Below are positions 40,700 through 63,406 of a stretch of 64,000 nt of DNA, piece by piece. Positions within the stretch are counted from its first letter, which is position 1. Every line of letters starts with the position of its first letter. The notes beneath the pieces are model-generated. The model saw nothing but the letters and a program-made list of their open reading frames with translations. It was not told where the DNA came from and searched no databases. The DNA is from Deltaproteobacteria bacterium HGW-Deltaproteobacteria-12 (GTDB taxonomy: Bacteria; Desulfobacterota; Syntrophia; Syntrophales; Smithellaceae): positions 12,108-76,107 of the forward strand of contig PHBK01000015.1 of the NCBI GenBank assembly GCA_002840565.1. Reading direction: 5' to 3'. The position numbers and the translations under genes were made by a program.

Positions 40700-40861
40700 T
40701 TTGCTATAATCCGCCTGATTTAAAGTTACAATCATTAAAGAGATAAATAACTTATAGTAAAATCTATTGACATATAAGGCAACTGTTCGTATCCTCATTC
40801 ACCGATAAGGGCACGTATTTATGGTTGTGCCATAAATACAAAATCCTGGGAGGAAAATGCT

Positions 40862-44524: not shown

Positions 44525-44652
44525 GCAGAGATTTAACAATGTGCTCCAAGTGACGCCCTAAAAGCGGTGCTCCCCTGAGTTTGGACATTGTATATCAATC
44601 ATTTTAAGCGCAAATCATCAAAATATTTTATTCACAAGAGTTGCTGACTTGA

Positions 44653-44727
44653 GGATGGGGACATTGATTCCGTTGATTCAGTACTTTATTTTCTACTTTT
44701 ATTGTCCTGGAATGTTTGCTTGATGAC
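44653..44727 (+). repeat. Dispersed repeat X1 (variant 'C' form)
   Basis: GGATGGGGACATTGATTCCGTTGATTCAGTACTTTATTTTCTACTTTTATTGTCCTGGAATGTTTGCTTGATGAC. It aligns with X2 (63148-63211), and its 3' part aligns with 47764-47785. Confidence 0.6.
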
Positions 44728-44825
44728 TTTCATCAATTATGCAAGATTACAAATGGATATAAGCTATTCGTGATGATTGATCATAGCTAACGGATGGGAA
44801 AGTATGGTTATCGAAGGAGCGATGT

Positions 44826-45635: not shown

Positions 45636-45952
45636 AGTGTTTTTAAGAAAGCATTGGTATTCGCATAACGAGTGTTTACAAGTGTTTTGTACGCTATTAT
45701 AATCTTCCTGTACTGCACAAAAATCTAACCTTAATGAAGATGCATGATTTCAATTAGTTATCAATAATTTTGTTTTCACGATTATTATGATATGATGACC
45801 TAAACGTGAAGGGACTGTGACCAGCGGATATGGCTGGAGAGGCTTTGGCACTTCCGGGAAGTAAGGTGGTAAAGGGAGAGGCTAAACGTAAACTCTAATA
45901 TCTAGAGAAACTGGGCTACTCGACTCAAAGGGAGACAAAAGGGGGAAAGAAA

Positions 45953-47624: not shown

Positions 47625-47763
47625 GATTAATTGTGTGAGATAACATTTGATTTGCGTCAATTCGCCTAGCAGAAAATATATTCAAGAAAGCTCAGGATTC
47701 CATGTGTGAATAGGTGGTCAAACCTTCCGACAGAAAAGGTGAGGCAAAGCGGAGCATGGATAG

Positions 47764-47785
47764 CTGAAATGTTTGCTTTATGCCA
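47764..47785 (+). repeat. Partial copy of the C-form repeat 3' end (X3)
   Basis: CTGAAATGTTTGCTTTATGCC compared with X1 CTGGAATGTTTGCTTGATGAC. It is preceded at 47711-47735 by TAGGTGGTCAAACCTTCCGACAG, which resembles a collapsed A-form core. Confidence 0.35.
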
Positions 47786-48037
47786 GACAACAAATATTGA
47801 CAGTACCTATATTTTGCAGTCAAGATTTTTTTGTACGATAGATTTTTGTCTTGATTCAACCAGGAACAAGCAGTATCTCGTCAAATATATGAAACTAGCT
47901 GTCTGTTCACTATGAATTAAATTAAAGGAAATGATCAGCGAAGATGTTTATCCTTTCTGACGGTGTCGCACTTTTAGGTCTTTTTTTGTTTTTATTTTAA
48001 TTGACAAGGTTCATCTGTCTCCTTAACATGAGGCTAT

Positions 48038-50612: not shown

Positions 50613-50690
50613 TTAGTAGATGAATGGTGCAAGATTTGCCAGTGACAAAAAATATCAATGATGGCTTTTCCGTTGAAAGCTTCCTGAACT
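50613..50690 (+). repeat. Dispersed repeat R3 (long 'B' form)
   Basis: TAGTAGATGAATGGTGCAAGATTTGCCAGTGACAAAAAATATCAATGATGGCTTTTCCGTTGAAAGCTTCCTGAAC, 53 nt after the ATPase stop. Confidence 0.7.
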
Positions 50691-50893
50691 ATGGAACCAT
50701 ACAGAGATAGGGAAAGTCGATGCTTTCGAATGATACTAATTAATATATTTCCCAAACGCATCGCCAGTTCCTACTTTTAGACTTATCATATCCCTTGACA
50801 AGAAAAAACAGCGTCAGTATATATTCAATATATCGAATATCTCGAAAGCAAGCAATACATTATCAAAACAGAATATCTAGGAGAGGCAGCATC

Positions 50894-52075
50894 ATGGACA
50901 CCAATCAACTTGCTATGACAAAAGATGACCATGCAACTTATACCAAATTCATCGAATGGCTCAAACAGAGCTGGTATGGTGTGCCGGATTCCGATGTCCT
51001 TCTGCCATATGTAGCCGCGCGTTACACGCTCGAAGAAGCAGTGCTCCTCACAGGCATGCCCTTTGCGCCGAAGACACTGGAGGAACTTTCGGATTTAACC
51101 GGAACCAATGCTGATGTGCTTCGCCCCAAACTCGACGCGCTGGCCGCCAAGGGGCTTGTCTATAAGCAGGTTAAAGAGAACCGCGAACGCTACTGTGTAA
51201 ACGACAGTTTCTTCATCGCCCGCACCTTTGGTTGGCCCGGTCGCCGCGATGAGTATGACCTGCGCGTAGGGCATCTTCAACACAAATATCTGACCGACGG
51301 GGCATTGTCACCCTGGCAGAACGTTAAAGAAAAAGGCTTGCGGGTACTGCCCATAGAGGCAACGATCGAGGATAACACCGGCGTATTGCCCTATGAAGAA
51401 GTGCGCAAGATACTGGATAAAGTCGAGTATTTCACCGTGAGCCACTGTCCCTGCCGGCATTCCAACAACCTTGATCCGGACTCACCGGCTAGCCAGTACC
51501 CAACCGAGGTCTGCCTGCATTTTGATAAGCTGGGGCACTATATCGTGGAAAACGGCATGGGCCGGGAGATTACGCGGCAGGAGACAGAAGAGATACTCAA
51601 GCGCTCTGCTGAATTGGGGCTTATCCATGGCATCTCCAACCAGCAGGAGAAACCCGATACCATCTGTAACTGCGACCGTGACTGCTGCATGTGGTTTTTG
51701 GCCATGAAGAAGTATGGGCATAATGGCAGCTTGACTCCCTCGAACTATCGCGTCACGGTCAATCAATCCACCTGTGTAGGCTGTGGTTTATGCATTAAGC
51801 GCTGCCCGATGGCAGCTCTGAATTTGCTGGATGAGCCGTCTGTTAAGGGACGTAAGACCGCGGTTATAGGCAAGGAAGGTGGGCAGCGTGAGCTGACGAA
51901 TAAGAACGGCAAGGTTGCGAAGCTGAATTCTGAACGCTGTATAGGATGCGGTGTATGCGCCTATAAATGTCAGTCGCAATCACTTACGCTTGAGCGAAAT
52001 CAGATTGAACATCATCCGCCTCAAACCGCGCGTGATTTTTTAATGCAGTTCATGACTGACGCCAGACCCAGATGA
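50894..52075 (+). CDS. 4Fe-4S dicluster domain protein with a winged-helix-like N-terminal region (unknown function)
   Basis: GGAGAGG before ATG 50894. Contains CVGCGLCIKRCP and CIGCGVCAYKCQ, plus additional Cys clusters (HCPCRH, CNCDRDCC). Confidence 0.6.
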   Translation: MDTNQLAMTKDDHATYTKFIEWLKQSWYGVPDSDVLLPYVAARYTLEEAVLLTGMPFAPKTLEELSDLTGTNADVLRPKLDALAAKGLVYKQVKENRERYCVNDSFFIARTFGWPGRRDEYDLRVGHLQHKYLTDGALSPWQNVKEKGLRVLPIEATIEDNTGVLPYEEVRKILDKVEYFTVSHCPCRHSNNLDPDSPASQYPTEVCLHFDKLGHYIVENGMGREITRQETEEILKRSAELGLIHGISNQQEKPDTICNCDRDCCMWFLAMKKYGHNGSLTPSNYRVTVNQSTCVGCGLCIKRCPMAALNLLDEPSVKGRKTAVIGKEGGQRELTNKNGKVAKLNSERCIGCGVCAYKCQSQSLTLERNQIEHHPPQTARDFLMQFMTDARPR

Positions 52076-52180
52076 TTTAATTGCTGTCTCGAGTAATTTC
52101 CCCAGTAAAGGTATGGGGTCTTTGGCTCATTCATCGAAGATGTCGGATACTGCAATTCGAGTGGTAACCTTCATATAAAG

Positions 52181-52320
52181 TCTCAACCCCAAAATTATTG
52201 ACATGTAGGTGCAGACGGCAAGCACTCCTTCCTGAAATCCACAAAAAGTCATACTTAACAGAAATGCTGGACTACAAATTGAAATAAACACAATTCACGC
52301 AAGAAGGTAAACATCATCAC
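52181..52320 (+). repeat. Dispersed repeat R4 (short 'A' form)
   Basis: Core AGGTGCAGACGGCAAGCACTCCTTCCTGAAATCCACAAAAAGTCA (52207-52251). The 17-mer AAATCCACAAAAAGTCA is identical to the one in R6. The flanks match R1. Confidence 0.7.
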
Positions 52321-52375
52321 TGCGCATATTGTAGTCTGTTTTCATTGAACACACAGCGCATGACTGACTTCACTG

Positions 52376-53248
52376 TTATTTATTGTCTGGTTCTATATGT
52401 ACAAAGATTGTACTTCTGGGAATTTCCTCTTGAATAGTCTTTTCAATATTATCAGCTATCTGATGCCCTTTCTCGATTGTAAATAGAGGATCAATATGAA
52501 TACATAAATCTACAAATATATCCGCGCCTGAATTCCTTACTTTTACATCATGAAAAGATATTATATCCGGAATTTTTTGCAGGATTTCATTTATTTGTTT
52601 AAACTTGTCTATCGGGGCCTTGTCCAGTAAAACATCTATCGACCGTTTACCAAGCCGATAACATACATGAATTACAATTAAGGCAACAATAAGTGCTGCA
52701 ACAATATCTGCATAGTACCAACCAAAACTGGCGAAAATCAGCCCGAGCAAAACAACCGATGAACTCCAAATGTCGGTTGAAAAATGAAGTGCGTCTGCCT
52801 CCAGCGCCTGACTGTTGTGCTTGCGAGCCGCCCTCATAAGTGCGCGAGATCGCCAATAATCAATTATAATAGAAGATGTTATAACAATGTAACTCCAACG
52901 ATTTACCTCAATATGAACATTCCCAGTCAATATTCGATGGATTGCTTCATAGATTATCCATATGCAAGTAATAAGGAGAAGAATGGTTTCGATAAGAGCA
53001 GATAGATTTTCTGTTTTGCCGTGCCCGTAAGGATGATCTATATCTGCCGGAGCATCAGAAACCCGGACAGATAAAAAAGTAATGAAGGCGGCAATAAGAT
53101 CTAAGCCTGAGTGTAAAGCCTCAGAGAGTAAGCCGAGGCTACCGGTTAGAAGTCCTATTGTGGCTTTAGAGCCAGTGAGAAATACTGCGGCAAATACCGA
53201 AATTATCGCTACGTTTTTCTTTTCATTTACAGATTCAGCGCGATTCAT
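52376..53248 (-). CDS. Cation diffusion facilitator (CDF) family metal transporter
   Basis: 290 aa, 6 TM. HSGLDLIA, HPYGHGKTE and DALHFSTD metal-site motifs, plus a C-terminal cytoplasmic domain. Confidence 0.85.
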   Translation of the reverse strand: MNRAESVNEKKNVAIISVFAAVFLTGSKATIGLLTGSLGLLSEALHSGLDLIAAFITFLSVRVSDAPADIDHPYGHGKTENLSALIETILLLITCIWIIYEAIHRILTGNVHIEVNRWSYIVITSSIIIDYWRSRALMRAARKHNSQALEADALHFSTDIWSSSVVLLGLIFASFGWYYADIVAALIVALIVIHVCYRLGKRSIDVLLDKAPIDKFKQINEILQKIPDIISFHDVKVRNSGADIFVDLCIHIDPLFTIEKGHQIADNIEKTIQEEIPRSTIFVHIEPDNK

Positions 53249-53269
53249 AGTGTTTGCTCCATGCCATTT

Positions 53270-54073
53270 TTATATTGATCGCGCTATTTTACTAATTTTA
53301 TTTTTTAGCCTGTATTTAACTTCATGCATAGGCTGTAAGGCAATCTCACCGGGAGTTTCCCCATGCTCAGAATACTCAAATGGATTATCTAAATCTCTTA
53401 TCAAAAACATCATATACAATACAAGAAATACGACAAATCCCAGGAAAAAGAGTGATTCATAAAATGGTTCGATTTCTACCAGCAGAAGCCCGATGCTAAT
53501 TAAAACAGCCAGAGATTCCACGATGGCGTAGGCGGAAGGAACAAAGCTGGTATCTCTGATAACCTGAATTCGTATCAGCATTTTTCTTAAGCAGCTTTGT
53601 TCCTGTTTGAGTCTGACAATGTAGTTTGCCGGAATTAAATCCTCCAGTTGGGAAAAATGCTCAGAGTAATTTTCAACATGTTCGAGAAGCATGGAAAATG
53701 GAACTCTTGAATAGAGCCAATCCATAATCAAATTTTGTGTTTGCAGGACATGCTCCAGCCATTGATTGACTCGCTCGTCCTTTTTTTTATAATGAACGGA
53801 AAGGGCGTCATCGGACAAGGTATCCAGACAGGCTGCTATTTCTCCCGGTATTTTTTCGCTTTCTTTATAGTCAGAAAGAACACCCGAAATAAGAAATCCT
53901 ATTAAAAATACTGTGCCAGCGATAAGGCTTGAGAAAAGAGCGTTCATCGTCAGAAATTCCAGATCATAAAAATGAATGACCCATTTCAAGAACATAAAAC
54001 CAAGTAGGATCGGCAACAATTTTATAACCAACCACCATTTTGGCTTTATAATCTTATAAATTGGATTTGTCAT
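53270..54073 (-). CDS. Membrane protein, paralog 1 of a tandem pair (bestrophin/UPF0187-like topology, tentative)
   Basis: 267 aa. 2 TM, a helical cytoplasmic region, 2 TM, then DLDNPF. It is very similar along its full length to the 54126-54923 product. Confidence 0.5.
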   Translation of the reverse strand: MTNPIYKIIKPKWWLVIKLLPILLGFMFLKWVIHFYDLEFLTMNALFSSLIAGTVFLIGFLISGVLSDYKESEKIPGEIAACLDTLSDDALSVHYKKKDERVNQWLEHVLQTQNLIMDWLYSRVPFSMLLEHVENYSEHFSQLEDLIPANYIVRLKQEQSCLRKMLIRIQVIRDTSFVPSAYAIVESLAVLISIGLLLVEIEPFYESLFFLGFVVFLVLYMMFLIRDLDNPFEYSEHGETPGEIALQPMHEVKYRLKNKISKIARSI

Positions 54074-54125
54074 TTTAATGTCTCTATAATTTTATTTCCA
54101 ATCATGCTTTGTATAACAGAACAAC

Positions 54126-54923
54126 TCATTCACCCATTTTTCGTAATTTATTATCGAGGCGTTCTTTAACCTCATGTATAGGGAACAAAGCTACTTCTCC
54201 GGGAGATTCTCCTTTTTCCGAATAGTCAAAGGGGTCGTCCAGATCCTTAATCAGCATGATCATATATAAAATAAGAAAAACAACAAATCCGAGAAAAAAT
54301 AGTGATTCGTAAAACGGTTCGATTTTAATCATTAGAAGACCAATGATGATCAGGAGAGCCAAAGTTTCCAGGATGGCATAGGCGGAAGAAACAAAGTCGG
54401 TATCTTTGATAACCTGAATACGTATAAGCAGTTTTCTCAAGGAACTTTGTTCCTGCTTTAGTTTTACGATATAGTTCACAGCAGTTAAATCTTCCAGTTT
54501 GGAAAAATGTTCAGTGTAGTTTTCAATGTGTTCCAGAAGCATATGAAATGGAATCCTCTTATAGAGCCAATCAATAACTAATTTTTGTGTTTGAATTATA
54601 TGTTCATGTAATTGATTGACGCGATCATCCTTTTTTTTATAATGAATGGAAAGGGCGTCATCGGATAAGGTATCAAGACAAGAGGCTATTTCTCCGGGAA
54701 TTTTTTCGCTTTCCTTGTAATCAGAAAGTACGCCCGAGATAAGAAAGCCGATCAGGAATACCGTGGCAGCGATAAGGCTGGTAAAAAGGGCGTTCATTTC
54801 CAGATATTCCAATTGGTAAAAGTGAAATATCCATTTAATGGCTACAAAAACAGCCAGAATGGGCAATATCTTTAAAACCAACCACCACTTCGGATTTACT
54901 AATTTTAAAACTAAATTTGGCAT
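54126..54923 (-). CDS. Membrane protein, paralog 2 of the tandem pair
   Basis: 265 aa. Shares FLIGFLISGVLSDYKESEKIPGEIA, LKQEQS.LRK.LIRIQVI.DT and IEPFYESLFFLGFVVFL with paralog 1. Confidence 0.5.
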   Translation of the reverse strand: MPNLVLKLVNPKWWLVLKILPILAVFVAIKWIFHFYQLEYLEMNALFTSLIAATVFLIGFLISGVLSDYKESEKIPGEIASCLDTLSDDALSIHYKKKDDRVNQLHEHIIQTQKLVIDWLYKRIPFHMLLEHIENYTEHFSKLEDLTAVNYIVKLKQEQSSLRKLLIRIQVIKDTDFVSSAYAILETLALLIIIGLLMIKIEPFYESLFFLGFVVFLILYMIMLIKDLDDPFDYSEKGESPGEVALFPIHEVKERLDNKLRKMGE

Positions 54924-54941
54924 GCTAAAATCCTTATAATT

Positions 54942-55307
54942 TTATTTACCTGTTCCCGACAATAACTTATTAAGAATTGGAAGAGCCGAGTCAATAGCAC
55001 CCTTTAATCCATTCTTGCTGATGTTTTCAAGAATGGATGAAATCATCGGCAATAGCGATATCAAAATAAATATTGCTACACCCAAAAGCACAATACCGCC
55101 TATAATTGCAGCAACTAGCAGCTTTTTGTTGGCCATAAGCATCGACATTATTTGCTGACCAATGTCTTCATGTTTGCGGTATTGATTGTCGTGTCTACCC
55201 GAGATATCAAAGGTTTTATTATATTCATCGTCCCGATCATGTTTATCTTTTTGATAATAACCATGATGTTTTTTGTTATGTTTCTCTCCGAAATAATCGT
55301 TACTCAT
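54942..55307 (-). CDS. Small His/Asp/Lys-rich protein with one TM helix
   Basis: GGAGGGG before ATG 55307. MSNDYFGEKHNKKHHGYYQKDKHDRDDEYNKTFDISGRHDNQYRKHED, followed by the hydrophobic LLVAAIIGGIVLLGVAIFILISLL. Confidence 0.55.
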   Translation of the reverse strand: MSNDYFGEKHNKKHHGYYQKDKHDRDDEYNKTFDISGRHDNQYRKHEDIGQQIMSMLMANKKLLVAAIIGGIVLLGVAIFILISLLPMISSILENISKNGLKGAIDSALPILNKLLSGTGK

Positions 55308-55428
55308 TTTACCCCTCCATAAAATAGTGTTTAGTACAATTTCGCAATTCACCTACCATGCTTTAATGTTTCGTAATATTAGATAATATAATATTGATAT
55401 TTCTAAAAATACGAACTATACAATAATT

Positions 55429-56334
55429 ATGGAATATCCCAACTATCAGCATCTCACATACTTTTATTGGGTCGCTAAAGAAGGCAGTATCTCTAAAGCA
55501 TCTCGTGTGTTATGCTTATCTCAATCTACAATATCCGCGCAACTGCGAACTCTGGAAAATCAGCTGGGTATAAAACTGTTCGATAAAAAAGGTCGCGGCC
55601 TGGCAATGACTGAAGAAGCCAAGGTGGTTTTTAGTTATGCCGAAGAACTTTTCAAACTGGGACAAGAACTTTTATCCACAACTAAATCCAAGAAGCAAAA
55701 AGGTCTGATGAACTTTAAGGTTGGTTTTGACCATTCTCTGCATAAAATGACTGGGTACCGGCTTCTTGCGCCTTTATTTCATCACGATAATATCAAAGTT
55801 ATTTGCTATGAAGATTCTTGTGAGAAACTGGTATTAAAATTACTCTCTCATGATTTAGAAATTATCATTACGAATTCACCTGTGCAGCCCCAAATGCAAA
55901 TAAAAGTATTTAATTACCTGTTGGGTGAATCACCACTCGCCATATTCGGCCATTTGACTTTATTGAAAAATAAAAAAATGAAATATCCTGAGAATCTTAA
56001 TGGTGCGCCTTTTTTGCTTCCAACCAACAATACTTATCTGCGCCGGGCTTTGGAAGAATGGTTTTTGTCCCGGAAAATATTTCCTGTAGTTCGTGCTGAA
56101 ATCGAAGACAGTTCCTTGATTAAGACATTTGCCAGAGAGGGGATAGGTTTTATGGCGGCACCGCTTTGGGCAAAGAAAGAGCTTAAAAAAAGTTATGGAC
56201 TTGCTCATGTTGGCAATTTAACAGGATTGAAGGAGCAATATTACCTTATTTCAGTACAAAGAAAGATCAATAATCCTATTGTGGCACATCTTGTGGAAGA
56301 GCATAGAAATCAATCTGATAATAAAAATTTATAA
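55429..56334 (+). CDS. LysR-family transcriptional regulator (NhaR-like)
   Basis: 301 aa. NYQHLTYFYWVAKEGSISKASRVLCLSQSTISAQLRTLENQLGIKLFDKKGRG. It is divergent from the 55307-52376 operon. Confidence 0.9.
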   Translation: MEYPNYQHLTYFYWVAKEGSISKASRVLCLSQSTISAQLRTLENQLGIKLFDKKGRGLAMTEEAKVVFSYAEELFKLGQELLSTTKSKKQKGLMNFKVGFDHSLHKMTGYRLLAPLFHHDNIKVICYEDSCEKLVLKLLSHDLEIIITNSPVQPQMQIKVFNYLLGESPLAIFGHLTLLKNKKMKYPENLNGAPFLLPTNNTYLRRALEEWFLSRKIFPVVRAEIEDSSLIKTFAREGIGFMAAPLWAKKELKKSYGLAHVGNLTGLKEQYYLISVQRKINNPIVAHLVEEHRNQSDNKNL

Positions 56335-56674
56335 GGAGGGGTTTTGTGTCATCCGAAAGTGGTTCCAATGCCGCCAGTTTCCTTTACCATCTTTCCCATT
56401 TTAATTGGAGAACCATGTTCGGCTTGAGCTTCAAACGTGCGCTCCCGGTGCGTCCCGCCGAGTAGACCATTTGTGGTCATTGGGTGCTGAAACAAACGGA
56501 ACGTCATGTTTTTTGAAAAGGCTGTATTTCAATCGGAAATAATCAAAAATTGGCTGAACTCAAAGTTAACATATGGTACAAGTATCAGGGGGCAGGTTAC
56601 ACATTTTCTTGCCGAAGCCATTAAAAATGTGTGAATATGAGAACCGCTATTCACACTCAGTACAAAGAAAGGTT

Positions 56675-57421
56675 ATGAAGATGAATAAAACCATCGAAGT
56701 CATGAAAAACCATCGCTCTATTCGCAGCTATCTTGATAAAGAAGTGCCTGATGCAATTATCGACGAACTGGTGGCAGTTGCCCAGGCTGCCCCGAACTCC
56801 ATCAATGGACAGCAGACTAGTCTCGTAATTGTTCGAGACAAACAAAAAAAGAAACAGATTGCGGAAATCGCTGGAGGGCAGCATTGGATTGCTCAAGCCC
56901 CGCTCTTTATCCTAGTTGTTGCCGATTTTTATAAGTCCAAGCTGGCTGCAGAAAAAGTCGGTAAACCCCTCGTCATTCCCGAGAGTGTTGAAGCGACAAT
57001 TGCGGTTTCTATTGATGCAGGAATTTGCCTGCAAAGTATAATTACAGCGGCAGAATCGCTCGATCTGGGAATCGTGCCTATCGGTGGTATTCGTAACAAT
57101 CCGGCCGCTATTATCTCGCTGTTGAATCTTCCTGAATATACTTTCCCTCTGAATGGCTTGACTGTTGGTTATCCGGCAGACCGATCCCACAAGAAGCCCC
57201 GAATGCCTGTAGCAGCTTTTAGGCATGATGAAATCTATGAAACAACAAAACTACCCAAGTTGATAGATGAGTATGATGTGTTGATGCAGCCTTATCTGAA
57301 AAGTGTGGGTCGTGAAAACGAGGTTAACTGGAGCAATCAAACAATGAATTTTTATTCGTTTGTTTATTTCCCGACTGTTTACCCGACAATGAAGCTTCAA
57401 GGCTTTAAAAACGACAAATAA
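56675..57421 (+). CDS. Oxygen-insensitive NADPH nitroreductase (NfsA-like)
   Basis: MKMNKTIEVMKNHRSIRSYLDKEVPDAIIDELVAVAQAAPNSINGQQTSLVIV. The length and motifs are NfsA-like. Confidence 0.8.
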   Translation: MKMNKTIEVMKNHRSIRSYLDKEVPDAIIDELVAVAQAAPNSINGQQTSLVIVRDKQKKKQIAEIAGGQHWIAQAPLFILVVADFYKSKLAAEKVGKPLVIPESVEATIAVSIDAGICLQSIITAAESLDLGIVPIGGIRNNPAAIISLLNLPEYTFPLNGLTVGYPADRSHKKPRMPVAAFRHDEIYETTKLPKLIDEYDVLMQPYLKSVGRENEVNWSNQTMNFYSFVYFPTVYPTMKLQGFKNDK

Positions 57422-57658
57422 AAAAATGCTGAGTATGACGGTGTTTTTAAAATAATGTATTTTTAAATATTTTATTATTAACATTTAAGACAGTTGTTCC
57501 TGTAAGTGCTATGCAGAATAGTTTTATTACTGTTGTAGATTTCAAATACACATCGTGATAAATAAAAAAAGTGACCTGTTGATGTTTTAGTGGCAAATTT
57601 GTGGCGTTGAGGTTGTTTGTCAGATGCACTTAGGCGGTTGAAGTCAACGGAGGCAGTC

Positions 57659-58663
57659 ATGTCCGAATCAAAATTTTATCATATTTCCCAAAAAGGAAAG
57701 CTCACAAGCGTAATAAATGTTGATGCCGCTGTGGCTGCGGCAAAGAGCGGCGGCTTTTTTTGGCTGAATTACTGTCAGCCGAAGAAAGAGGAACTCTTGA
57801 TCCTCATCAGTCTCCTTGATCTCCATCTTCTTTCCATTGAGGATTGTTTAGACAAAAACCAGATTCCCAAGATAGAAGACTTTCCCCGGAATACTTTTAT
57901 TATCTTCAACACTTTTGAATATTCAAACAAAAAACTTTCGATCGGCGAGATTGATCTGTTTATCGGAGACAACTTTCTGGTGACAGTCAGCCAACGCAAA
58001 TCCGACAATCGCCGAGTTTTGGATGGCATTGAGCACATCATGGAGACAGACATGGAGAGTGCCAGGCACGGACCGGCGTTCCTGATGCACGTCATTCTGG
58101 ATAATGTTGTGGACCAAAAGTTTCTGGCAATTGAAGCGCTGGAAGATGAACTGGACATCCAGGAAGAAACAATGCTGGCCAGCGTTTCAAATTTCAACCC
58201 TGCCGAGATGATCCGATTGCGTCGTGACCTGCTGAACCTCCGCAAGAGTCTCTTTCATGAACGGGAGATCCTCGTTAAGATTTGTCGCAAAGATTGTCAC
58301 TTCATACCGGACAAGGCAATCTATCACTATCGGGACATCTACGACCATCTTACAAAATTCTTTGAGCTGACTGAATCTTATCGTGAAATAGTCACCAGTC
58401 TCATGGAGATGTACCTGTCGATGCTAAACAACCAGATGACTAAAGTTGCCAACGAAACAAATCTTACAGTCAGACGGCTGACACTCATAACCACTATCTT
58501 TATGCCGCTTACACTCCTTGCTGGAATCGGTGGGATGTCAGAGTGGTCTATGATGACCGGATCTGCTAACTGGAAGATCGCCTATCCAGCTTTTCTGTTA
58601 GCTATGGTGGTAATCGGTTTTACTAACTACTGTCTAATCAAGTGGTATGAAAAGAAAAAATAA
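57659..58663 (+). CDS. CorA-family divalent cation transporter with a non-canonical GMS signature
   Basis: GGAGG before ATG 57659. CorA cytoplasmic domain, then TTIFMPLTLLAGIGGMSEW (canonical is YGMNF) and a second TM segment. Confidence 0.75.
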   Translation: MSESKFYHISQKGKLTSVINVDAAVAAAKSGGFFWLNYCQPKKEELLILISLLDLHLLSIEDCLDKNQIPKIEDFPRNTFIIFNTFEYSNKKLSIGEIDLFIGDNFLVTVSQRKSDNRRVLDGIEHIMETDMESARHGPAFLMHVILDNVVDQKFLAIEALEDELDIQEETMLASVSNFNPAEMIRLRRDLLNLRKSLFHEREILVKICRKDCHFIPDKAIYHYRDIYDHLTKFFELTESYREIVTSLMEMYLSMLNNQMTKVANETNLTVRRLTLITTIFMPLTLLAGIGGMSEWSMMTGSANWKIAYPAFLLAMVVIGFTNYCLIKWYEKKK

Positions 58664-59036
58664 TGGTGGGTCGGGCGTACGCTGGAATAAACAGCAATGG
58701 CAAGAGACTTCATCTGTCTGCAAAAAATATGGTCTGCCTGTCCGTTCATCCATATCTCGATGGCAAATGCGAAATTCATTAAGCAATTCATTTATTACAT
58801 TCAATCCGTAATATTATTTTTACCATATTTTAGATTTAAATGCTTGTAAGTGAGCTTAGCTGCGTTTCCTTCTTGCCGAAATTATTTTTCCCATTATGTC
58901 TTTTTATGCTACATTAATAATAGTAAGGTTAAAAAACATTCTGTAAGTGTATTACGTTCTTGAGGATAAATCAGTTGTTGGTGTCTAAATAATAGATATT
59001 TTTTGTACACTTGAGAAACAAGGGAGGTAAAGAATT

Positions 59037-59249
59037 ATGAGGTATCGTAAGTTACTGATAAAGCATGTTGGGGAATCTATGACTTGTACGAGGAGTTCCT
59101 ATGACACTTGCCGTATTGTCTTTGATAACTCCGGGCCATTTGTTCTCAAAGAGGTTGGGGAAGATTATGTGATTGTAGAGGATAAAAGTTGTACGCCACC
59201 TAGCTATGATGTTTTCCTTTTAGAGAATACATCATTTGGGGTTTTGTAA
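59037..59249 (+). CDS. Small hypothetical protein
   Basis: 70 aa. Strong GGGAGG RBS 8 nt upstream. No recognised motif. Confidence 0.4.
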   Translation: MRYRKLLIKHVGESMTCTRSSYDTCRIVFDNSGPFVLKEVGEDYVIVEDKSCTPPSYDVFLLENTSFGVL

Positions 59250-60000
59250 CAGGGCAAGTGGGACCATACGGAACGTTTTCAGCAACTAGTACTACACCGC
59301 TAGATAAGACCACGGTCAAAGTGCGTTTTGACAAAAGAGGAGTAATGATCTCATCCGCAATAGATGGGCCAGCAAGGAATCAATTCCATTTTTGCGTCAT
59401 CCACCGCGGCAATGAGAGTTTCATACATAAGTTGAAGATTCCGTACTGATAATAAATGAAATCAGGAATAGAAAGTACAGCTGCAATGTATTCCGCTATA
59501 TTGAGATAGCGCGTTCAAAGCTCTTCAACCGGCTCTTCAGAGCGATCATAATTGCAAGGATAGTGAAAAGCCTCAGACAATCTCCAGACCATCGGCAAGA
59601 ATGTCCTCTAAATTTCAGAGATAAACGGCAGGAGGGAATTAATCCAGAAGCCGACTGTGCGATGATCCAATATGCCATACTGAATCACTTGCCTCTGTCA
59701 GTTGACTTATTCATCATATATACTCATTGATCAACCCAGTATAATCCCAATAATTTTATTTATAATAGAATTCGTATCCGGGATCTTACCCAGCGAAACA
59801 ACGCCAAAAGGTTGTGTCGTTTCAGAAATTGATAAAACTTTCCCATCTTTTAAAATTTCAACTTTTAATGCTCCTTCAGCTGTCGTTTTACGAAATAAAC
59901 AAACAGCGGCAACCCCCTTCCCTTGATATTCCACCGGAACAACGGCATTAACCTCCACCGGCTGCGGAATTTCTCCGCTTAACGGGGTGTCCGTTTTTAC

Positions 60001-60156
60001 TTGACCAGATCACTTGCAGTTGTGGGTTGTAAAAAATCAGAAGATGCTGCGACTAAGGTAAAGGACGCTACCAAAGAAGCTGTAACCGAAGTAAAAGACG
60101 CAACTAAAGATGCTGTAACTAAAGTAAAGGACGCTACCAAAGAAGCTGCAAAATAA
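60001..60156 (+). CDS. Small lipoprotein-like repeat protein (possibly 5'-truncated)
   Basis: Not in the ORF track (51 aa). From TTG 60001: MTRSLAVVGCKKSEDAATK(VKDATKEAVTE)x3-like. The lipobox LAVVGC follows a very short signal region. A strong terminator follows the gene. Confidence 0.45.
   Translation: MTRSLAVVGCKKSEDAATKVKDATKEAVTEVKDATKDAVTKVKDATKEAAK
60058..60153 (+). repeat. Three tandem 33-bp repeats (11-aa periodicity) inside the small lipoprotein ORF
   Basis: GTAAAGGACGCTACCAAAGAAGCTGTAACCGAA / GTAAAAGACGCAACTAAAGATGCTGTAACTAAA / GTAAAGGACGCTACCAAAGAAGCTGCAAAA. Confidence 0.85.
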
Positions 60157-60187
60157 TTGATTTAAATAAAGTAATAGAACAAATTTA

Positions 60188-60220
60188 TCGGACATTACTT
60201 TTGTGAATGTCCGATTTTTT
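60188..60220 (+). terminator. Rho-independent terminator
   Basis: TCGGACATT, a 9-nt loop, AATGTCCGA, followed by TTTTTT. Confidence 0.8.
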
Positions 60221-60271
60221 ATGCATGAACTACCCCGAATTTTGTGCCCTATGTTTTCTACTCGTAGTAGG

Positions 60272-60390
60272 CAAAGTTTTATTAATTTTCACATGATTGA
60301 TAAGTGGATGGATGGTGCAAGATTAACCAGCGGCTGAAAGGGGGAAAAACGATGATGAGTTTGCCCGTGACAGCTTCCTCCTGAAAGAGA
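60272..60390 (+). repeat. Dispersed repeat R5 (long 'B' form)
   Basis: CAAAGTTTT...GATGGATGGTGCAAGATTAACCAGCGGCTGAAAGGGGGAAAAACGATGATGAGTTTGCCCGTGACAGCTTCCTCCTGAAAG. Weaker similarity to R3 may continue to about 60480. Confidence 0.65.
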
Positions 60391-60587
60391 GCATCCAGCA
60401 ATTCTGGTGGAGACCCACCCTTTCGGACGGTAATCCATGATAAAACTGAAGCAATTTCCCCCTTGACTTTCCATTCGCATAAGAACATTCTTTAATCATT
60501 GTTGCTCTTATAGCTCAATAAACCCATCAACTTCAGATAACAGAACCATCCAAATTATTCATTTATAACAGGAGATGGAGGTGTAGA

Positions 60588-61778
60588 ATGTCCATGCTAT
60601 TTACTCCCAAGAAGATCGGCAATGTTGAGATAAAGAATCGCTTTGTAAGGGCAGCCACCTATGAGGGTATGGCTGATCAATCCGGAAGGGTGACGGATGA
60701 ACTTGTGTCCGTCTATCGCCGCCTGGCGCAGGGAGATACTGGTCTTATCCTCAGTAGCTTCATGTTTGTTCATCCTCTTGGGCGGGCTCTGCACAATCAG
60801 CTTGGAATACATAATGACGAAGCTATTTCAGGGTTATCCCGTTTAGCCGATGTTGTTCATAAAGGTGGAGGGAAGATAGCCTTCGAGATCAGTCATAGTG
60901 GGAGACAGACCAGACCAGAGCTTATCGGCCAGAGACCGCTTGGGCCATCGGCGATAAGGCGAGACCCAACATTTTTCATCAAACCCGCAGCAATGACCAT
61001 TCATGACATCCGTGAGGTGATCGCTGCCTTTATAGCTGCTGCAGGACGCTCTGTGACTGCCGGCGGTGATATAGTTTATGTCCATGCAGGCGGGGGCGAC
61101 CTACTTAACCAGTTTCTGAGTCCTTACTTCAATGATCGAACGGACGAATGGGGCGGATCTGCAGTAAACAGGTTCCGTATCGTGCGTGAAATCATTGAAG
61201 GGATTAAGGCCTCGCTCGGCAATATTCCTGTTTTAGTAAAGATGAATGCCCAGGACTTTACGCCCAAGCCCGGAGTCACTCCGGAACTGGCAAGGGAATA
61301 TGCCGCCATGCTGGCGGAAATCGGGATCGATGCCTTGGAGCTAACTTCAGGGATCAAGTTTTACAGCCTCATGAACTGTTGGAGGGGCGAGGTTCCGATA
61401 CAGGAGCTACTACGGTCGCTGCCCGCATGGATGCGGCCCATCGGGCGCATGAAGTTGAAGAGATGGAGCGGAAAATATAACCTGATCGAAGGCTGGAATT
61501 TGGATTATCTGAAAATGGTGAAACCGGTAACCGGTAACATGGCCCTTTTCCTCGTGGGCGGCATGCGCCGTTTTAAGCATATGGAGCAAGTTCTCATAAG
61601 GGGGGAGGCTGACTTTATCTGTCTCTGCCGCCCCTTCATCAGGCAGCCTGATCTGGTGAAGAAATTCAGAGAAGGAGTTAAAGAGAGCACCTGCAAATCT
61701 TGTAACAGGTGCATTGGAGCAGTGTCCAATAATATTCCCACACGCTGCTACTTCGGCGGGCTTCCTGACAAACAATAG
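60588..61778 (+). CDS. Old Yellow Enzyme-family NADH:flavin oxidoreductase
   Basis: 396 aa. KNRFVRAATYEGMAD, EISHSGRQT and ELTSG. TIM-barrel OYE pattern with a C-terminal CKSCNRC. Confidence 0.8.
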   Translation: MSMLFTPKKIGNVEIKNRFVRAATYEGMADQSGRVTDELVSVYRRLAQGDTGLILSSFMFVHPLGRALHNQLGIHNDEAISGLSRLADVVHKGGGKIAFEISHSGRQTRPELIGQRPLGPSAIRRDPTFFIKPAAMTIHDIREVIAAFIAAAGRSVTAGGDIVYVHAGGGDLLNQFLSPYFNDRTDEWGGSAVNRFRIVREIIEGIKASLGNIPVLVKMNAQDFTPKPGVTPELAREYAAMLAEIGIDALELTSGIKFYSLMNCWRGEVPIQELLRSLPAWMRPIGRMKLKRWSGKYNLIEGWNLDYLKMVKPVTGNMALFLVGGMRRFKHMEQVLIRGEADFICLCRPFIRQPDLVKKFREGVKESTCKSCNRCIGAVSNNIPTRCYFGGLPDKQ

Positions 61779-61835
61779 CAAGGAATATGATAAGTATATT
61801 AATAAGGACAAGGGAATATAGTTTTGAGGTGACCT

Positions 61836-61925
61836 GCCCCCCCCCCGAAAATTGATCAAGCTTCGAGGGGAAGGCCAACTCAAAATGAAGACCTAGCTTC
61901 CTCCAAATCCACAAAAAGTCAAACT
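61836..61925 (+). repeat. Dispersed repeat R6 (A-like, diverged 5' half, contains a C10 tract)
   Basis: GCCCCCCCCCCGAAAATTGATC...CTAGCTTCCTCCAAATCCACAAAAAGTCAAAC. The 17-mer at 61905-61921 is identical to R4 52235-52251. Confidence 0.65.
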
Positions 61926-62200
61926 CGGCAAATATGCTTGCTTTTGATCCATTATCATTAGATGTTGTTTCATTTAAAACATGATATACACACAGTGTTT
62001 CCATATTATGGCACTGGTGGAAAACCCGACGACAAAAGGAAAACAAACCTTAGCTGTAACCTCGGGAGAAACCAGTCTACTCAACTCAAATGCCGTCATA
62101 ACAAGGAATAAGTTAGCAGCGCTGTCCCGTCTAAGCAGTATATGGATTAAAGAAGATCAAATTAGAAAAAATAATTAGGTGCATTTCACAAAACTAATAA

Positions 62201-63022
62201 ATGAAACAAAAACAACAAAAAAGCGGATGGGGATTTATTCTTATCATCGTTGCAAGCACAATCCTTGCGATTCTTCTCCATCAACTGCATGATGATCCAC
62301 TGATGCATTTGAAGAGCAAGCCTCAAAGCATCCTGATAACATCTGGGTGGTTTCCACCAGTTGCCTTCATCGCTCTTGCTTTCACATTTGGTGTCATGGG
62401 GCGCATATTTCTTGGGATTCAAAAGACGTTCCGGGGAACGAAGCTTTGGAAAGGAGGGGTATTTGGATTCGCATTGAGTGGCTTGTGGATCATTGGAATG
62501 ACCGAAGTCTATGTTCTATACCCGGTCTCTTTATTCGGGGAGATATATACTGGAATAGCAGATAGTTGCGGTATACTGCTCATGAGCCTTTTAATTGGGA
62601 AGTATCGGGCTGACGATACGCTTAATGGGGAGACACATATGAGCACAACGTTCCCAGCGATCATAATCATCACCGTCATATATATCATGGTGAGATATTT
62701 TTCCTATGCAGTCCTGCAGATTGAGTCATCGTATGTCACACGACCGCTTGCTACATTCTTATGGACAGCAGGAATGGGCGGATGGATCGGGGTCATGTAT
62801 ATATTAATCAGCGGGGGCATGTTGCGCATGCATCCTCTTAAACGCGCGGTATTGTTTGGTGGGCTTGTCTTTGGAATTAACTGGATATTGTTTAATCTAT
62901 TTGCCTTACTATTTATTGTCACCCCAGTGTTGGATTTAGTATATCGCTCGGTGTTTGATGCACTTGCCGTTATTCTGGGAGCTTATATTTCCTCAATTTT
63001 CCAGCGCCGTTATGCGGAGTGA
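62201..63022 (+). CDS. Polytopic membrane protein, unknown function
   Basis: 273 aa, about 7-8 hydrophobic segments, no recognised motif. Confidence 0.5.
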   Translation: MKQKQQKSGWGFILIIVASTILAILLHQLHDDPLMHLKSKPQSILITSGWFPPVAFIALAFTFGVMGRIFLGIQKTFRGTKLWKGGVFGFALSGLWIIGMTEVYVLYPVSLFGEIYTGIADSCGILLMSLLIGKYRADDTLNGETHMSTTFPAIIIITVIYIMVRYFSYAVLQIESSYVTRPLATFLWTAGMGGWIGVMYILISGGMLRMHPLKRAVLFGGLVFGINWILFNLFALLFIVTPVLDLVYRSVFDALAVILGAYISSIFQRRYAE

Positions 63023-63147
63023 CATTTTAGGAGTTACTCTTTTACCCGGCGTTCGTGGTTTCAACCTTGAAAATTACCCGTATTCAAGGGGACGCATGAA
63101 AGGATGCTCAAACATTTTTATAGGGTTAAGTATTAAAGAGGGATAGC

Positions 63148-63211
63148 AAGGTGCTGCGATGGACAGTGATTCCATTGATTCAACTCTACTTTTATCTTCC
63201 TGAAATGTAGC
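63148..63211 (+). repeat. Dispersed repeat X2 (variant 'C' form)
   Basis: AAGGTGCTGCGATGGACAGTGATTCCATTGATTCAACTCTACTTTTATCTTCCTGAAATGTAGC. It starts with AGGTGC and ends with CTTCCTGAAAT like the A form, and its interior matches X1. Confidence 0.6.
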
Positions 63212-63406
63212 ATAGGCCGATTTTCTCAGATATGATCTGTTTCAATCGCAAGTCAATAACTTTGATCATGTTGAGAGCTTACATTTAGTTTATTGAAAGC
63301 AATGATAGAGGCCGGTGATTTTGTGTAGCAGCTTTCAATCCGAACTGCTGAATAATCATCAAAAGCCTCAAATTAATCTCCCTCTTTAGGTTCTTAAGGC
63401 TATTAA

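Follow-up and report, generated by a model that had tools for sequence, protein, structure and literature searches.

The metal-resistance island in the window (the whole 64,000-nucleotide stretch of DNA analysed) contains a recurring intergenic sequence, and the question is whether these repeats divide it into exchangeable gene units, as the first-pass annotation proposed in likening single-gene units between repeats to cassettes. For the most part this cassette-like reading is supported: the repeats prove to be genuine junction elements, and they cut the island into about ten swappable gene units.

Junction elements of the island

At least 11 junction elements are present in the window, nine listed previously and two added here (45704 and 56483), all on the plus strand and confined to 33.0-63.3 kb, within an island integrated at tRNA-Phe. 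In a profile search at E<0.01, no core copies were found in positions 1-33000 or in 63.3-71.8 kb. Each junction is a composite of the 3′ part of the left unit, a linker, and the 5′ part of the right unit. The left unit ends in a tail, TTTCAAnnnGTAATC, and then approximately 35 nt. The linker comprises TTGTAGGTGCA, a spacer of 5-115 nt, and CTTCCTG; its commonest form is 31 bp with an inner dyad, GGTGC..GCAC, which covaries between copies (GGTGC..GCAC, GGTAC..GTAC, and GGTGG..CCGC). The TTGTAGGTG part is missing from many junctions. The right unit begins with a conserved core of approximately 75 nt, ATCCACAAAAnGTCAAC..AAAATGC..GAyTTCAA..TAATCA, after which there is usually a sigma-70-like promoter (TTGACA-17-TAnnnT 3′ of the core in many copies) and, about 220 nt further on, a gene. 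The next ORF is co-oriented in 77 out of 102 cases, at a median distance of 219 nt, and for about a quarter of cores (25 %) the next gene is on the opposite strand.

The features of the window, in order, are:

24547..24622, plus strand: tRNA-Phe, left boundary of the island (ARAGORN, Rfam; GC about 0.50, then 0.33-0.42 past it)
24629..25804, minus strand: island tyrosine integrase, 391 aa, N-terminal arm-type/SAM-like domains (Pfam Phage_integrase 1.3e-40 and Arm-DNA-bind_2)
26972..29851, minus strand: TrwC-type relaxase/helicase (Pfam TrwC 2e-57, AAA_30)
32999..33145, plus strand: junction R1, short linker; TTTCAACCCATAATTC 32999-33015, TTGTAGGTGCA 33045-33055, spacer 33056-33069, CTTTCTG 33070-33076, core 33077-33145 (nhmmer E=5e-13; 82 % identity to R4 over 61 nt)
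Up to 40560: unit 1, opened by R1; 141-aa ORF, CzcCBA-type RND operon, two small ORFs
40561..40745, plus strand: junction R2, long 55-nt spacer; linker start 40607-40617, CTTCCTC 40673-40679, core up to 40745 (profile search E=1.6e-8, blastn, gapped pattern)
40767-40795: promoter-like TTGACA-17-TATCCT of R2
Unit 2, opened by R2: SDH protease, VTT, 231-aa ORF, DUF302 (minus strand), DUF4282
44640..44764, plus strand: junction X1, diverged subfamily; TGTCCTG 44703-44709, distal half of core 44739-44764 (X1-X2 blastn E=1.5e-5; half-profile match at the expected offset, weak alone because E=0.5)
44826-45635: unit 3, opened by X1; Fer4 protein
45703..45781, plus strand: junction N1, added here; CTTCCTG 45704-45710 and core (nhmmer E=7.8e-8, then 1.3e-12)
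45953-46273, then up to 47624: unit 4, opened by N1; CMD, then NMT1-like
47700..47810, plus strand: partial X-type junction (..GCTGAAATGTTTGCTT..), low confidence (by-eye likeness to X1, 19-nt blastn match; no match in the profile search)
48038-50560: unit 5, opened by the 47.7-kb partial copy; P-type ATPase
50624..50756, plus strand: junction R3; ATGGTGCA 50624-50631, long spacer with homologs in R2 and R5, CTTCCTG 50680-50686, diverged core to 50756 (blastn, gapped pattern, half-profile)
About 50795: R3 promoter, TTGACA-17-TATATA
50894..52075, plus strand: unit 6 cargo, opened by R3; 4Fe-4S dicluster protein, 393 aa (Pfam Fer4 families)
52156..52300, plus strand: junction R4, short linker; TTCGAGTGGTAACC 52156-52169, ATGTAGGTGCA 52203-52213, CTTCCTG 52228-52234, core up to 52300 (nhmmer E=9e-14)
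Unit 7, opened by R4: CDF exporter and three ORFs (minus strand), LysR (plus strand)
56483..56557, plus strand: junction N2, added here, diverged core (nhmmer E=4.5e-5, then 3.3e-5 for 56500-56557; half-profile E=2e-4)
Unit 8, opened by N2: nitroreductase, CorA, small ORFs
60312..60448, plus strand: junction R5; ATGGTGCA 60312-60319, long spacer, CTTCCTC 60374-60380, diverged core (blastn, gapped pattern, half-profile)
60588..61778, plus strand: unit 9 cargo, opened by R5; Old Yellow Enzyme (OYE)-type flavin oxidoreductase (Pfam Oxidored_FMN 1e-56)
61897..61973, plus strand: junction R6; CTTCCTC 61897-61903 and core, lacking the TTGTAGGTG part (nhmmer E=2e-12)
62201..63022, plus strand: unit 10 cargo, opened by R6; 273-aa protein with no Pfam or NCBIfam match
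63150..63265, plus strand: junction X2, diverged, the last in the window; CTTCCTG 63197-63203 (X1-X2 blastn, half-profile)
Past X2: MFS and glycyl-radical enzyme genes, with no core copies at E<0.01

The repeats are real and share the plus strand, far beyond what chance would give. The gapped long form of the linker, GGTGCAAGATT..RATGATG..GCTTCCT, matches three times (R2 40612, R3 50626, and R5 60314) vs none in 100 shuffles, and pairs are aligned by blastn (R1-R4 E=5e-12; R2-R3 1e-7; R4-R6 5e-5; X1-X2 1.5e-5). R3, R5, X1, X2, and the partial copy at 47.7 kb have diverged, and taken singly each scores only weakly. The 4Fe-4S unit runs as first described from the R3 heptamer (50680) through 214 nt to its ORF, with 128 nt from the end of the ORF to the R4 linker (52203); likewise, the OYE ORF lies 214 nt from the R5 heptamer (60374) and 119 nt from that of R6 (61897). 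The unit of the presumed membrane protein stands between R6 (304 nt to the ORF) and the X2 heptamer (63197), although its 3′ gap is 175 nt rather than 60-130. The region 44826-47624, previously taken as one block, is divided by N1 (E=1e-12) into a Fer4 unit and a CMD plus NMT1 unit. Divergent genes flank R1, convergent genes flank R4 and X2, and two units include genes on the minus strand (43463-43846 and 52376-55352).

As structured RNA, the junctions were rejected, with hairpin z-scores of -1.8 to +1.6 in eight copies and no consensus pairs in 20. They were also rejected as terminators: the terminator-like sites overlap none of the repeats, so that the terminator-associated explanation named in advance as a refutation fails.

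Motif-bounded exchange of units in relatives

The pattern CTTYCTNNNATCCACAAAANGTCA has 15 matches in GTDB genomes vs about 2 expected from base counts, 13 of which share a further 50-150 nt or so and lie on MAG contigs of Syntrophaceae, Smithella, Desulfobacteraceae, or Zixibacteria. With a related pattern, the core was found in 65 metagenome contigs. Together the 13 MAG and 65 metagenome contigs hold 122 core copies (profile matches, E<0.01), and the approximately 24 multi-copy contigs all carry their copies on the strand of the seed, with none opposite. Cores in other genomes precede kinases, toxin-antitoxin pairs, PilZ, HlyD, Hcp, ChrA, and a recombinase, and one unit (L022 4908-6957) has minus-strand genes only. 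Homologs of the unit 6 4Fe-4S protein (79-87 % identity) have entirely different neighbours in other contigs, and both core and promoter are missing altogether from the 87 % homolog of the Fer4 gene in the window.

Homology between contigs repeatedly begins or ends at CTTCCTG or TTGTAGGTG. In at least eight contig pairs it starts from base 1 of CTTCCTG, the DNA upstream being unrelated, for example in L016/L023 (95.8 % over 833 nt). Conversely, L022/L092, L034, and L073/L090 have one upstream unit in common through CTTCCTG, then three different continuations; L023/L068 show the same pattern, and L095, L096, and L097 have one linker in common before a three-way divergence. Contigs L131 and L132 match at 99.7-99.8 % identity over flanks of 7.9 kb (left) and 4.7 kb (right), their sole difference being a 4.3-kb vs a 1.5-kb segment swapped exactly between two motifs, although any strain-to-strain replacement will break where homology ends, however it arose. 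Both segments have CTTCCTG at the left edge and ATTTGTAGGTG at the right, each with its own terminal TTTCAA..GTAATC tail. Instead of a single position, breakpoints occupy three: one precedes TTGTAGGTG, another precedes CTTCCTG, and the third is at the TTTCAA..GTAATC motif.

The proposal of repeat-bounded modular units is thus borne out, with blocks exchangeable in relatives and the same unit found beside different neighbours. The layout is not, however, the ORF plus 3′ site first suggested: the conserved core and promoter travel with the downstream gene, homology starting exactly at CTTCCTG, and the 3′ end of the upstream unit holds only the short TTTCAA..GTAATC segment and about 35 nt past it. 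Unit-level variation, as clean replacement at the motifs between near-identical contigs, was found in relatives and not in the population of the window, where gene order was invariant in every contig fetched (several samples). An invariant order in all related strains, together with repeats at unrelated loci, had been named as grounds against cassettes. Repeats are indeed present at unrelated loci in other genomes; those loci, however, are co-oriented arrays with unit swapping and therefore favour the cassette idea.

A small recombinase family and known systems

A gene for a 279-aa Xer-like recombinase lies 0.9 kb upstream of the variable segment of L131 and L132. The protein has two domains, core-binding and catalytic, and at E<=1e-20 its family numbers 2,292 homologs; among solved structures it is nearest to XerA (5hxy, E=5e-14) and XerD (1a0p). 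In four subfamilies TTGTAGGTGC is found 110-135 nt upstream of the ATG, a position kept across about 40 % protein divergence, and a single protein sequence (P0079) recurs in six or more upstream contexts, all converging at ..TTGTAGGTGC. In L137 the gene is within an array, with cores on either side. Among core-selected contigs a family member is present in only 1 of 78 (L020); contigs were picked by motif or by recombinase, therefore the association is not an unbiased statistic. The annotation had proposed a search for a recombinase beside the array: this family is physically tied to the motifs in relatives, but no member is present in the window or the next 22 kb of the 87-kb source contig. 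The 391-aa island integrase, only 23 % identical to the family, probably integrates the island as a whole, as distinct from a recombinase of the cassettes; the TrwC-type relaxase identifies the island as an integrative element that is mobilizable or conjugative. The 391-aa integrase is not an IntI (TIGR02249: 50 bits, cutoff 265), and the 279-aa recombinase scores 49 bits against the same model.

Like integrons, these are co-oriented arrays of one- to few-gene units with a recurring site between them, varying in content between close strains and associated with a simple Xer/IntI-related tyrosine recombinase. Toxin-antitoxin units (here in relatives) and arrays with no nearby recombinase (integrase-less attC clusters; the array of the window) occur in both. 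In contrast to integrons, the recombinase lacks the IntI signature and is a unit inside arrays rather than at one end, most of the conserved site belongs to the 5′ side of the unit downstream, a promoter of its own serves most units in place of Pc, and the sites neither fold as attC hairpins nor contain RYYYAAC/GTTRRRY.

Xer modules and resolution sites (pdif of Acinetobacter plasmids; cer/psi) are similar in the small two-domain Xer-like recombinase, in the linker of about 30 bp with an inner dyad, and in discrete gene modules bounded by the sites; the approximately 75-150 bp conserved here on one side only resemble the accessory sequences of cer/psi. The linker, however, does not match dif/pdif (GGTGC alone is in common with the XerC arm). 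Sites here are direct repeats, whereas those of pdif modules alternate, and the length of the spacer varies greatly. The recombinase is multi-copy and mobile, unlike the housekeeping XerC/D pair. As in tandem accretion of ICEs or IMEs with cis-mobilizable elements, units stand head to tail in an integrative mobilizable element, and internal junctions resemble complete composite sites (3′ tail, core, and 5′ head). These are unrelated, however, to the island's own attachment site (a repeat of the tRNA-Phe 3′ end was looked for and not found), the units are far smaller (1-8 kb), and the island's integrase is from a different family. Putative mobile promoters likewise place one promoter-bearing upstream block of about 150 nt before unrelated genes, within and between genomes; the block here differs in its sharp motif-defined edge, the partner motif at the other end of the unit, the array organisation, and the linked recombinase.

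Alternatives and a proposed mechanism

A mobile or re-used promoter module, copied before unrelated genes, could act together with general recombination (homologous or illegitimate) and selection, the recombinase gene being just another carrier. The co-oriented ORFs at 219 nt, the promoters after many cores, the functionally unrelated genes downstream, and a Fur-box-like distal part of the core (AATGATAATCATTA) fit such a module, as does a Fer4 homolog in L107 that is without it, so that gene and module are separable. This is nevertheless unlikely, as it leaves unexplained the TTGTAGGTG at the right edge of swapped segments, the 3′ tails of units, and the absence of opposite-strand copies in about 24 arrays. 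Some units have minus-strand genes only (L022 4908-6957, unit 7 of the window), homologous recombination between cores predicts breakpoints inside or right of the core and not at its left edge, the L131/L132 cores are too different for recombination, and the motif keeps its position upstream of the recombinase family despite the divergence of the proteins. Decay of a small non-autonomous repeat family (MITE- or REP-like), marking merely old intergenic insertion sites, would account for 20-35 % divergence among copies, for truncated ones (R6, N2, and partial matches), and for CCACAAAAT and ATTTTGTGG about 85 nt apart in one subtype. It is improbable given that this inverted pair is internal, not terminal, and missing from the other subtype, that terminal inverted repeats and target-site duplications are absent, and that strand uniformity is strict, distance to downstream genes fixed, units exactly abutting with a 7-bp motif in common, and clean replacements recent, between 99.7 % identical contigs.

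Operators of one regulon, with the core bound by, for example, a Fur-family or metal/redox-stress regulator co-regulating the island genes, would suit the coherent cargo (RND, P-type ATPase, CDF, CorA, OYE, nitroreductase, and Fe-S proteins), the Fur-box-like stretch, and a CCACAAAA motif recurring in both orientations. This is very improbable, however: about 75 contiguous nucleotides at fixed spacing are far beyond operator needs, cores elsewhere precede the unrelated genes listed above, from kinases to a recombinase, the genes that R4 and X2 face are convergent, with their 3′ ends towards the junction, and the breakpoints are unaccounted for. A true integron array (an attC cluster without integrase), or simple terminator-associated repeats, would suit the co-oriented units, some single-gene, and the toxin-antitoxin pairs in relatives. 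Either is barely credible, with R′′/R′ core sites, hairpin, and IntI all absent, as first noted for the attC features and intI, and no terminator-like site overlapping a repeat.

It is reasonably probable that the repeats are junctions of an integron-like array whose units are exchanged via the small Xer-like recombinase. We infer that the 279-aa protein catalyses this exchange, that crossover falls within the linker, and that circular intermediates exist; among recombination products, no circle or empty site was observed. The linker would be the crossover site of this two-domain enzyme, although a spacer that ranges from 5 nt up to about 115 nt is unusual in a simple tyrosine-recombinase core site of 28-34 bp. 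The one-sided core may be an accessory sequence, as in cer/psi, doubling as the stretch upstream of the promoter that each unit carries. Recombination between two junctions in direct repeat would release a unit as a circle, and the reverse reaction would insert or replace units. The ten units, of metal efflux/uptake and redox genes, have accumulated in the tRNA-Phe integrative mobilizable element. The array is fixed in the sampled population and there is no cognate recombinase in the examined parts of the contig, therefore it is probably quiescent here, and the recombinase would be needed in trans. In relatives the junctions mark points of exchange beside a small Xer-like recombinase, and this therefore looks like an undescribed integron-like system.

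Junctions of the array and the island that carries them

The repeats listed in the first-pass annotation were all present on the plus strand, where it had placed them. By blastn, R1 and R4 are 82% identical over 61 nt (E=5e-12) and the copies group as R2-R3-R5, R4-R6-R1, and X1-X2; a long-form gapped pattern (GGTGCAAGATT..RATGATG..GCTTCCT) matches R2, R3, and R5, with no match in 100 shuffles. A profile built from outside sequences located two extra copies (45703-45781 and 56500-56557) and, combined with the listed repeats, the array therefore contains at least 11 junctions and approximately 10 units, the gene blocks of 1.0-7.6 kb between junctions. Over 33 kb left of the array and 8.5 kb right of it, the profile found no copy at E<0.01. 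In the diverged members (R3, R5, X1, X2, and the copy at 47.7 kb), the heptamer of the junction is kept and the distal half of the conserved core is weakly matched at the expected offset. Weak plus-strand matches to the distal core half also occur at 43284-43318, right after the ORF for a 231-aa protein, and outside the island at approximately 20080-20120 of L001, the overlapping sequence of the source contig (70667-70707 in window numbering; E=0.011 and 0.014, respectively). The latter is approximately 300 nt 5′ of a Gp49/HTH toxin-antitoxin pair, and the same gene pair comes after a strong core in L137, which holds more of contig L020.

Comparison of the window copies with copies from other genomes gave one composite junction in five parts.

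Parts of the composite junction, 5′ to 3′
Part a: TTTCAAnnnGTAATC(a)
Part b: ~35 variable nt, often ending ..CTT
Part c: TTGTAGGTG(CA)
Part d: spacer, 5-115 nt long; the commonest class has 16 nt and hence a c-d-heptamer linker of 31 bp, for example TTGTAGGTGCAAACGGCAGGCACTCCTTTCTG in R1
Heptamer and core: CTTCCTG, then nnATCCACAAAAnGTCAACCTCGnCGAAAATGCnnGAyTTCAAnnnnTAATCA

Short linkers contain a covarying dyad, of which one arm is the end of part c and the other comes directly past the loop (GGTGC..GCAC, GGTAC..GTAC, GGTGG..CCGC). R2, R3, and R5 have a homologous long spacer in common. On the 3′ side of the core there are two subtypes, both leading, at about +130 to +165, to a candidate sigma-70-like promoter recognized by consensus matches (TTGACA-17-TAnnnT or an extended -10). 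A homologous upstream region and candidate promoter precede non-homologous genes, as in a putative mobile promoter. Promoter consensus counts are at the level of shuffled sequence, as are those of terminator-like sites, so these scans served no purpose beyond excluding terminators and pinpointing single promoter-like sites. Neither a sigma-54 nor an ECF promoter was accepted in the linker or core, the spacing being judged by eye to be unsuitable. Neither a small ORF in the R2/R3/R5 spacer (ATGATGGCTTTTCC.., MMAFP..) nor a longer ORF through the core (..FLLSTKSQTRRK..) was retained, because the frames differ among copies and the indels are not multiples of three.

The window sequence is also contained in ENA ERZ27239241 k141_2991 (86,954 bp), which is JGI Ga0246094_000456. 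GC content falls after tRNA-Phe, at which there is a mobilizable element that also includes an HTH protein gene.

Features of the mobilizable element
24547-24622: tRNA-Phe
24629-25804, minus strand: tyrosine integrase
26110-26754: protein without family match
26972-29851, minus strand: TrwC relaxase
29866-30645: protein without family match

The cargo at 33-63 kb includes a CzcCBA-type RND operon, a P-type ATPase, a CDF exporter, CorA, two Fe-S proteins, OYE, a nitroreductase, a LysR regulator, and several unknown proteins. Based on the tRNA, integrase, relaxase, GC drop, and cargo, 24547-32731 and the array region are therefore an integrative mobilizable island at tRNA-Phe, carrying metal and redox functions. 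One backbone gene has 76% nucleotide identity to a Smithella MAG, which hints at a relative of the Syntrophales as host.

Within the cargo, the CDF exporter is separated from a 136-aa ORF by two tandem paralogous genes on the minus strand (53270-54073, 267 aa; 54126-54923, 265 aa), which are 75% identical over 300 nt at the nucleotide level and divergent from the LysR gene; one has a weak Bestrophin-like match. A small ORF ends in a 33-nt tandem repeat of 3 copies (60041-60220; ..KDATKEAV..-type repeats), followed by a clear hairpin and T-tract (~60190-60220) just 5′ of R5. Between the OYE stop codon and R6 there is a run of nine to ten C (61836-61846), possibly a slippage-prone tract or an assembly-sensitive site. 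In the chromosomal backbone, a 30-nt inverted repeat (9318-9347/9641-9670, 87% complementary, GTCATTCCGGCGCAGGCCGGAATCC..) surrounds 293 nt; this is possibly a small element, mobile or regulatory, with no relation to the junctions.

Distribution and exchange of units in related genomes

The first 24 nt of the core were compared with one genome per GTDB species, matching 15 contigs. Thirteen have extended similarity, from Syntrophaceae, Smithella, 'delta proteobacterium', Desulfobacteraceae, and Zixibacteria MAGs; matches in Leptospira and Mariniplasma look like chance. The JGI metagenome scan gave 65 contigs. For the long-form pattern there were no matches in either the genome contig or the metagenome collection, the latter null being unreliable because JGI Ga0246094_000456 (L004) holds the pattern yet the scan missed it, so that absence is not readable from nulls in the JGI collection. 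No match to R2 or R4 was found by blastn against plasmids. With the profile, 122 core copies at E<0.01 were identified in 78 contigs and the window. In approximately 24 contigs there is more than one copy, always on the same strand. The next ORF is co-oriented in 77 out of 102 cases, the median distance from the heptamer being 219 nt, and the genes 3′ of cores are functionally unrelated (histidine kinase, Hcp, HlyD, PilZ, HicAB, ChrA, CheW/MCP).

All-against-all blastn revealed at least eight contig pairs for which the shared sequence starts at base 1 (±2) of CTTCCTG and the DNA on its left is unrelated.

Examples of contig pairs with homology from the heptamer
L016/L023: 95.8% over 833 nt
L023/L068: 97% over 1745 nt
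L022/L034: 88% over 2064 nt
L055/L069

The reverse arrangement is also present. One upstream unit is common to L022/L092, L034, and L073/L090 through CTTCCTG, after which there are three different continuations; likewise, L023 and L068 have an upstream unit in common through the heptamer and differ after it, and L095, L096, and L097 have in common a PEP-CTERM unit with its linker before a three-way divergence. The clearest case of exchange is that of contigs L131 and L132, which have an identical recombinase and flanks 99.7-99.8% identical over 7.9 kb and 4.7 kb. At the same place, L131 has a segment of 4.3 kb (269-aa protein, DUF7255, GmrSD) and L132 one of 1.5 kb (226-aa protein, DUF4156). 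The edges of the swap are directly after CTTCCTG on the left and directly before ATTTGTAGGTG on the right, and each alternative segment terminates in its own a-b tail. By these edges and tails, the exchangeable unit is the core, promoter, gene(s), and parts a and b, and the c-d-heptamer linker remains behind. Since both half-sites are conserved in all units, the true crossover could be anywhere inside this linker.

The first-pass annotation had looked to variation at the level of units in relatives of the window. None is seen in the window's own population, the array being identical in contigs fetched from several samples; related contigs do show clean unit replacement and swapping of neighbours. 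No circular form was observed. Homologues of the 4Fe-4S protein of unit 6 (79-87% identity) have wholly different neighbours, and in the window, L107, and L121 a 3′ untranslated stretch and an a motif move with the gene. As a caveat for a strict cassette model, the 87% homologue is joined to the a-b tail of the preceding unit without core or promoter and the 86% homologue is within an operon; modules can therefore be gained or lost independently of genes. The other window unit proteins have no close relatives in the fetched loci, and the window's 231-aa protein is not related to those of equal length in L114/L115.

A family of small tyrosine recombinases at the junctions

A 278-aa tyrosine recombinase adjoins the array of contig L020. 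It has 2,292 homologues at E<=1e-20, nearly all of 279 aa, with hosts that include Syntrophaceae, Smithellaceae, and Syntrophorhabdaceae MAGs. The family has two domains only, PF02899 and PF00589, the simple layout of the Xer clade with no arm-binding domain, and its closest solved structures are XerA and XerD. It scores below every NCBIfam Xer and IntI cutoff and is not, based on the Xer cutoffs, an orthologue of XerC, XerD, or XerA.

One member of this family, P0079, is recorded as an identical protein in 53 blocks of the assembly collection. At least six different contexts are found upstream of its gene and two downstream; each of those upstream closes with an a-b tail of its own, after which comes the same TTGTAGGTGC-spacer-GTTCCTG-diverged core-ATG. 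By this convergence of varied contexts on one junction, the recombinase gene is itself a unit of the system. The c motif is 110-135 nt 5′ of the ATG in four subfamilies, which are ~59-61% identical to the query. In L137 there are cores on both sides of the recombinase gene, placing it inside an array, and strong cores within 6 kb of the gene are also present in L106, L094, L104, and L123.

Inverted repeats of 11-13 bp enclose the recombinase ORF in L094-L103, L104-L106, and L137, with CCCCAAAGACCTC preceding the ATG and GAGGTCTTTGGGG following the stop codon. Four subfamilies have the TTGTAGGTGC motif and a TATAAT directed at the 5′ end of the gene; in the L020/L104/L137 subfamily they are directed at its 3′ end, as if the ORF segment were inverted; the recombinase gene may be an invertible on/off gene. 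Two contigs (L050, 3081-5106; L051, 216-2200) contain two overlapping tandem tyrosine recombinase genes of 378 and 323 aa, which end ~150 nt before a core copy, and homology between these contigs runs 49 nt into the core. We take this pair to be reminiscent of a recombinase-in-trio element.

A recombinase beside the array, for which the first-pass annotation had pointed outside the window, is absent from the window's own locus as regards this family, with no member in the window or the next 22 kb of the contig; it is in relatives that the family is tied to the junctions. The window integrase was rejected as the cassette recombinase, being only 23% identical to the array-linked family.

Comparison with known systems and alternative explanations

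To our knowledge, integrons are the only well-established system assembling arrays of small gene units by site-specific recombination. Their hallmarks are an IntI with an IntI-specific extra domain and attC sites, imperfect palindromes (R''/L''..L'/R', RYYYAAC..GTTRRRY) that fold into hairpins; cassettes are excised and inserted as units and array content differs between strains. The array system would work alike, but the tests that define an integron fail. Against the TIGR02249 cutoff of 265 bits, the window integrase scores 49.9 and the 279-aa family 49.4, and there is no other tyrosine recombinase in 1-71778, in agreement with the first-pass annotation that intI is absent from the window. 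Its statement that the sites lack attC features is likewise borne out: single-sequence folds of eight copies have z-scores of -1.8 to +1.6, none significant, RNAalifold on 20 aligned cores gives no consensus pairs, and no attC core-site consensus was seen on reading the junctions. Therefore attC-type hairpins are excluded, as are riboswitches, sRNAs, and other structured RNAs, which have a conserved secondary structure with covariation or an Rfam match; at the gathering threshold, only tRNA-Phe was found by Rfam in the whole window.

A Xer/dif site is ~28 bp, with an 11-bp XerC arm, a 6-8-bp centre, and an 11-bp XerD arm of dif consensus. In its recombinase and in its site layout, a ~30-bp core with conserved sequence on one side, the array system resembles Xer systems (cer/psi, pdif modules) more than integrons. 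Its sites differ, however, from those of Xer/dif and pdif in being direct repeats without a dif match; the 31-bp linker TTGTAGGTGCAnnCGGCAAGCACTCCTTCCTG has only GGTGC in common with the XerC arm. A classification of tyrosine recombinases describes no such system (PMC8138268), and no description was found in the searchable literature by motif sequence or by topic.

Other classes of repeat do not account for the junctions. Intrinsic terminators have a GC-rich stem-loop and then a T tract; none of 35 terminator-like sites in 32.5-64 kb overlaps a junction, contrary to the alternative, considered in the first-pass annotation, of terminator-associated repeats. MITE/REP-like repeats have terminal inverted repeats, target-site duplication, and both orientations in one genome, whereas terminal inverted repeats are absent at the element edges here and all 122 copies are co-oriented within their own contigs. 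Tandem accretion of ICEs or IMEs would leave internal repeats that copy the att site of the element itself; this is ruled out for the tRNA-Phe 3′ end, which has no right-hand copy within 72 kb, and no match of >=13 nt to the tRNA-Phe region was found anywhere in those 72 kb.

The junctions delimit a modular, motif-bounded system of co-oriented units, physically tied to a mobile Xer-like recombinase family. From the sequence comparisons, these are probably site-specific cassette junctions. The strongest competing explanation is that a promoter block has been re-used and that general recombination has shuffled it. This accounts for the promoter, the distance to the gene, and the functional diversity, but not for the second motif on the distal border of swapped segments, the tails of the units, the strand uniformity without exception, the units of minus-strand genes only, or the conserved position of the motif by the recombinase gene, and we regard it as unlikely. 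The remaining readings are given small weights.

Under the site-specific cassette reading, a mobile, cassette-borne 279-aa Xer-like recombinase would recombine the ~31-bp TTGTAGGTGCA..CTTCCTG linkers, flanked on one side by accessory sequence. Self-expressed units, each with its own promoter, would thereby be brought together in co-oriented arrays, both chromosomal ones and those of integrative mobilizable elements like that of the window, and the recombinase gene itself may be invertible between 13-bp inverted repeats. That integrons have an independent counterpart here, a second gene-cassette system of Syntrophales, Desulfobacterota, and neighbouring lineages in which a Xer-like recombinase acts on the linkers, is a serious but tentative proposal, to which we give slightly less than an even chance. 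If true, it would differ from integrons in the recombinase clade, the double-strand-type sites, the units' own promoters, and the recombinase being a unit, and would offer a compact recombinase/site pair for genetic tools. The recombinase family and core motif would be a new marker of mobile DNA in MAGs. The cassette reading, if true, would also account for the unit-by-unit building of the metal and redox resistance island in the window, and accessory-gene flux in anaerobic syntrophic and sulfate-reducing lineages of sediments, peat, and digesters would be read differently.
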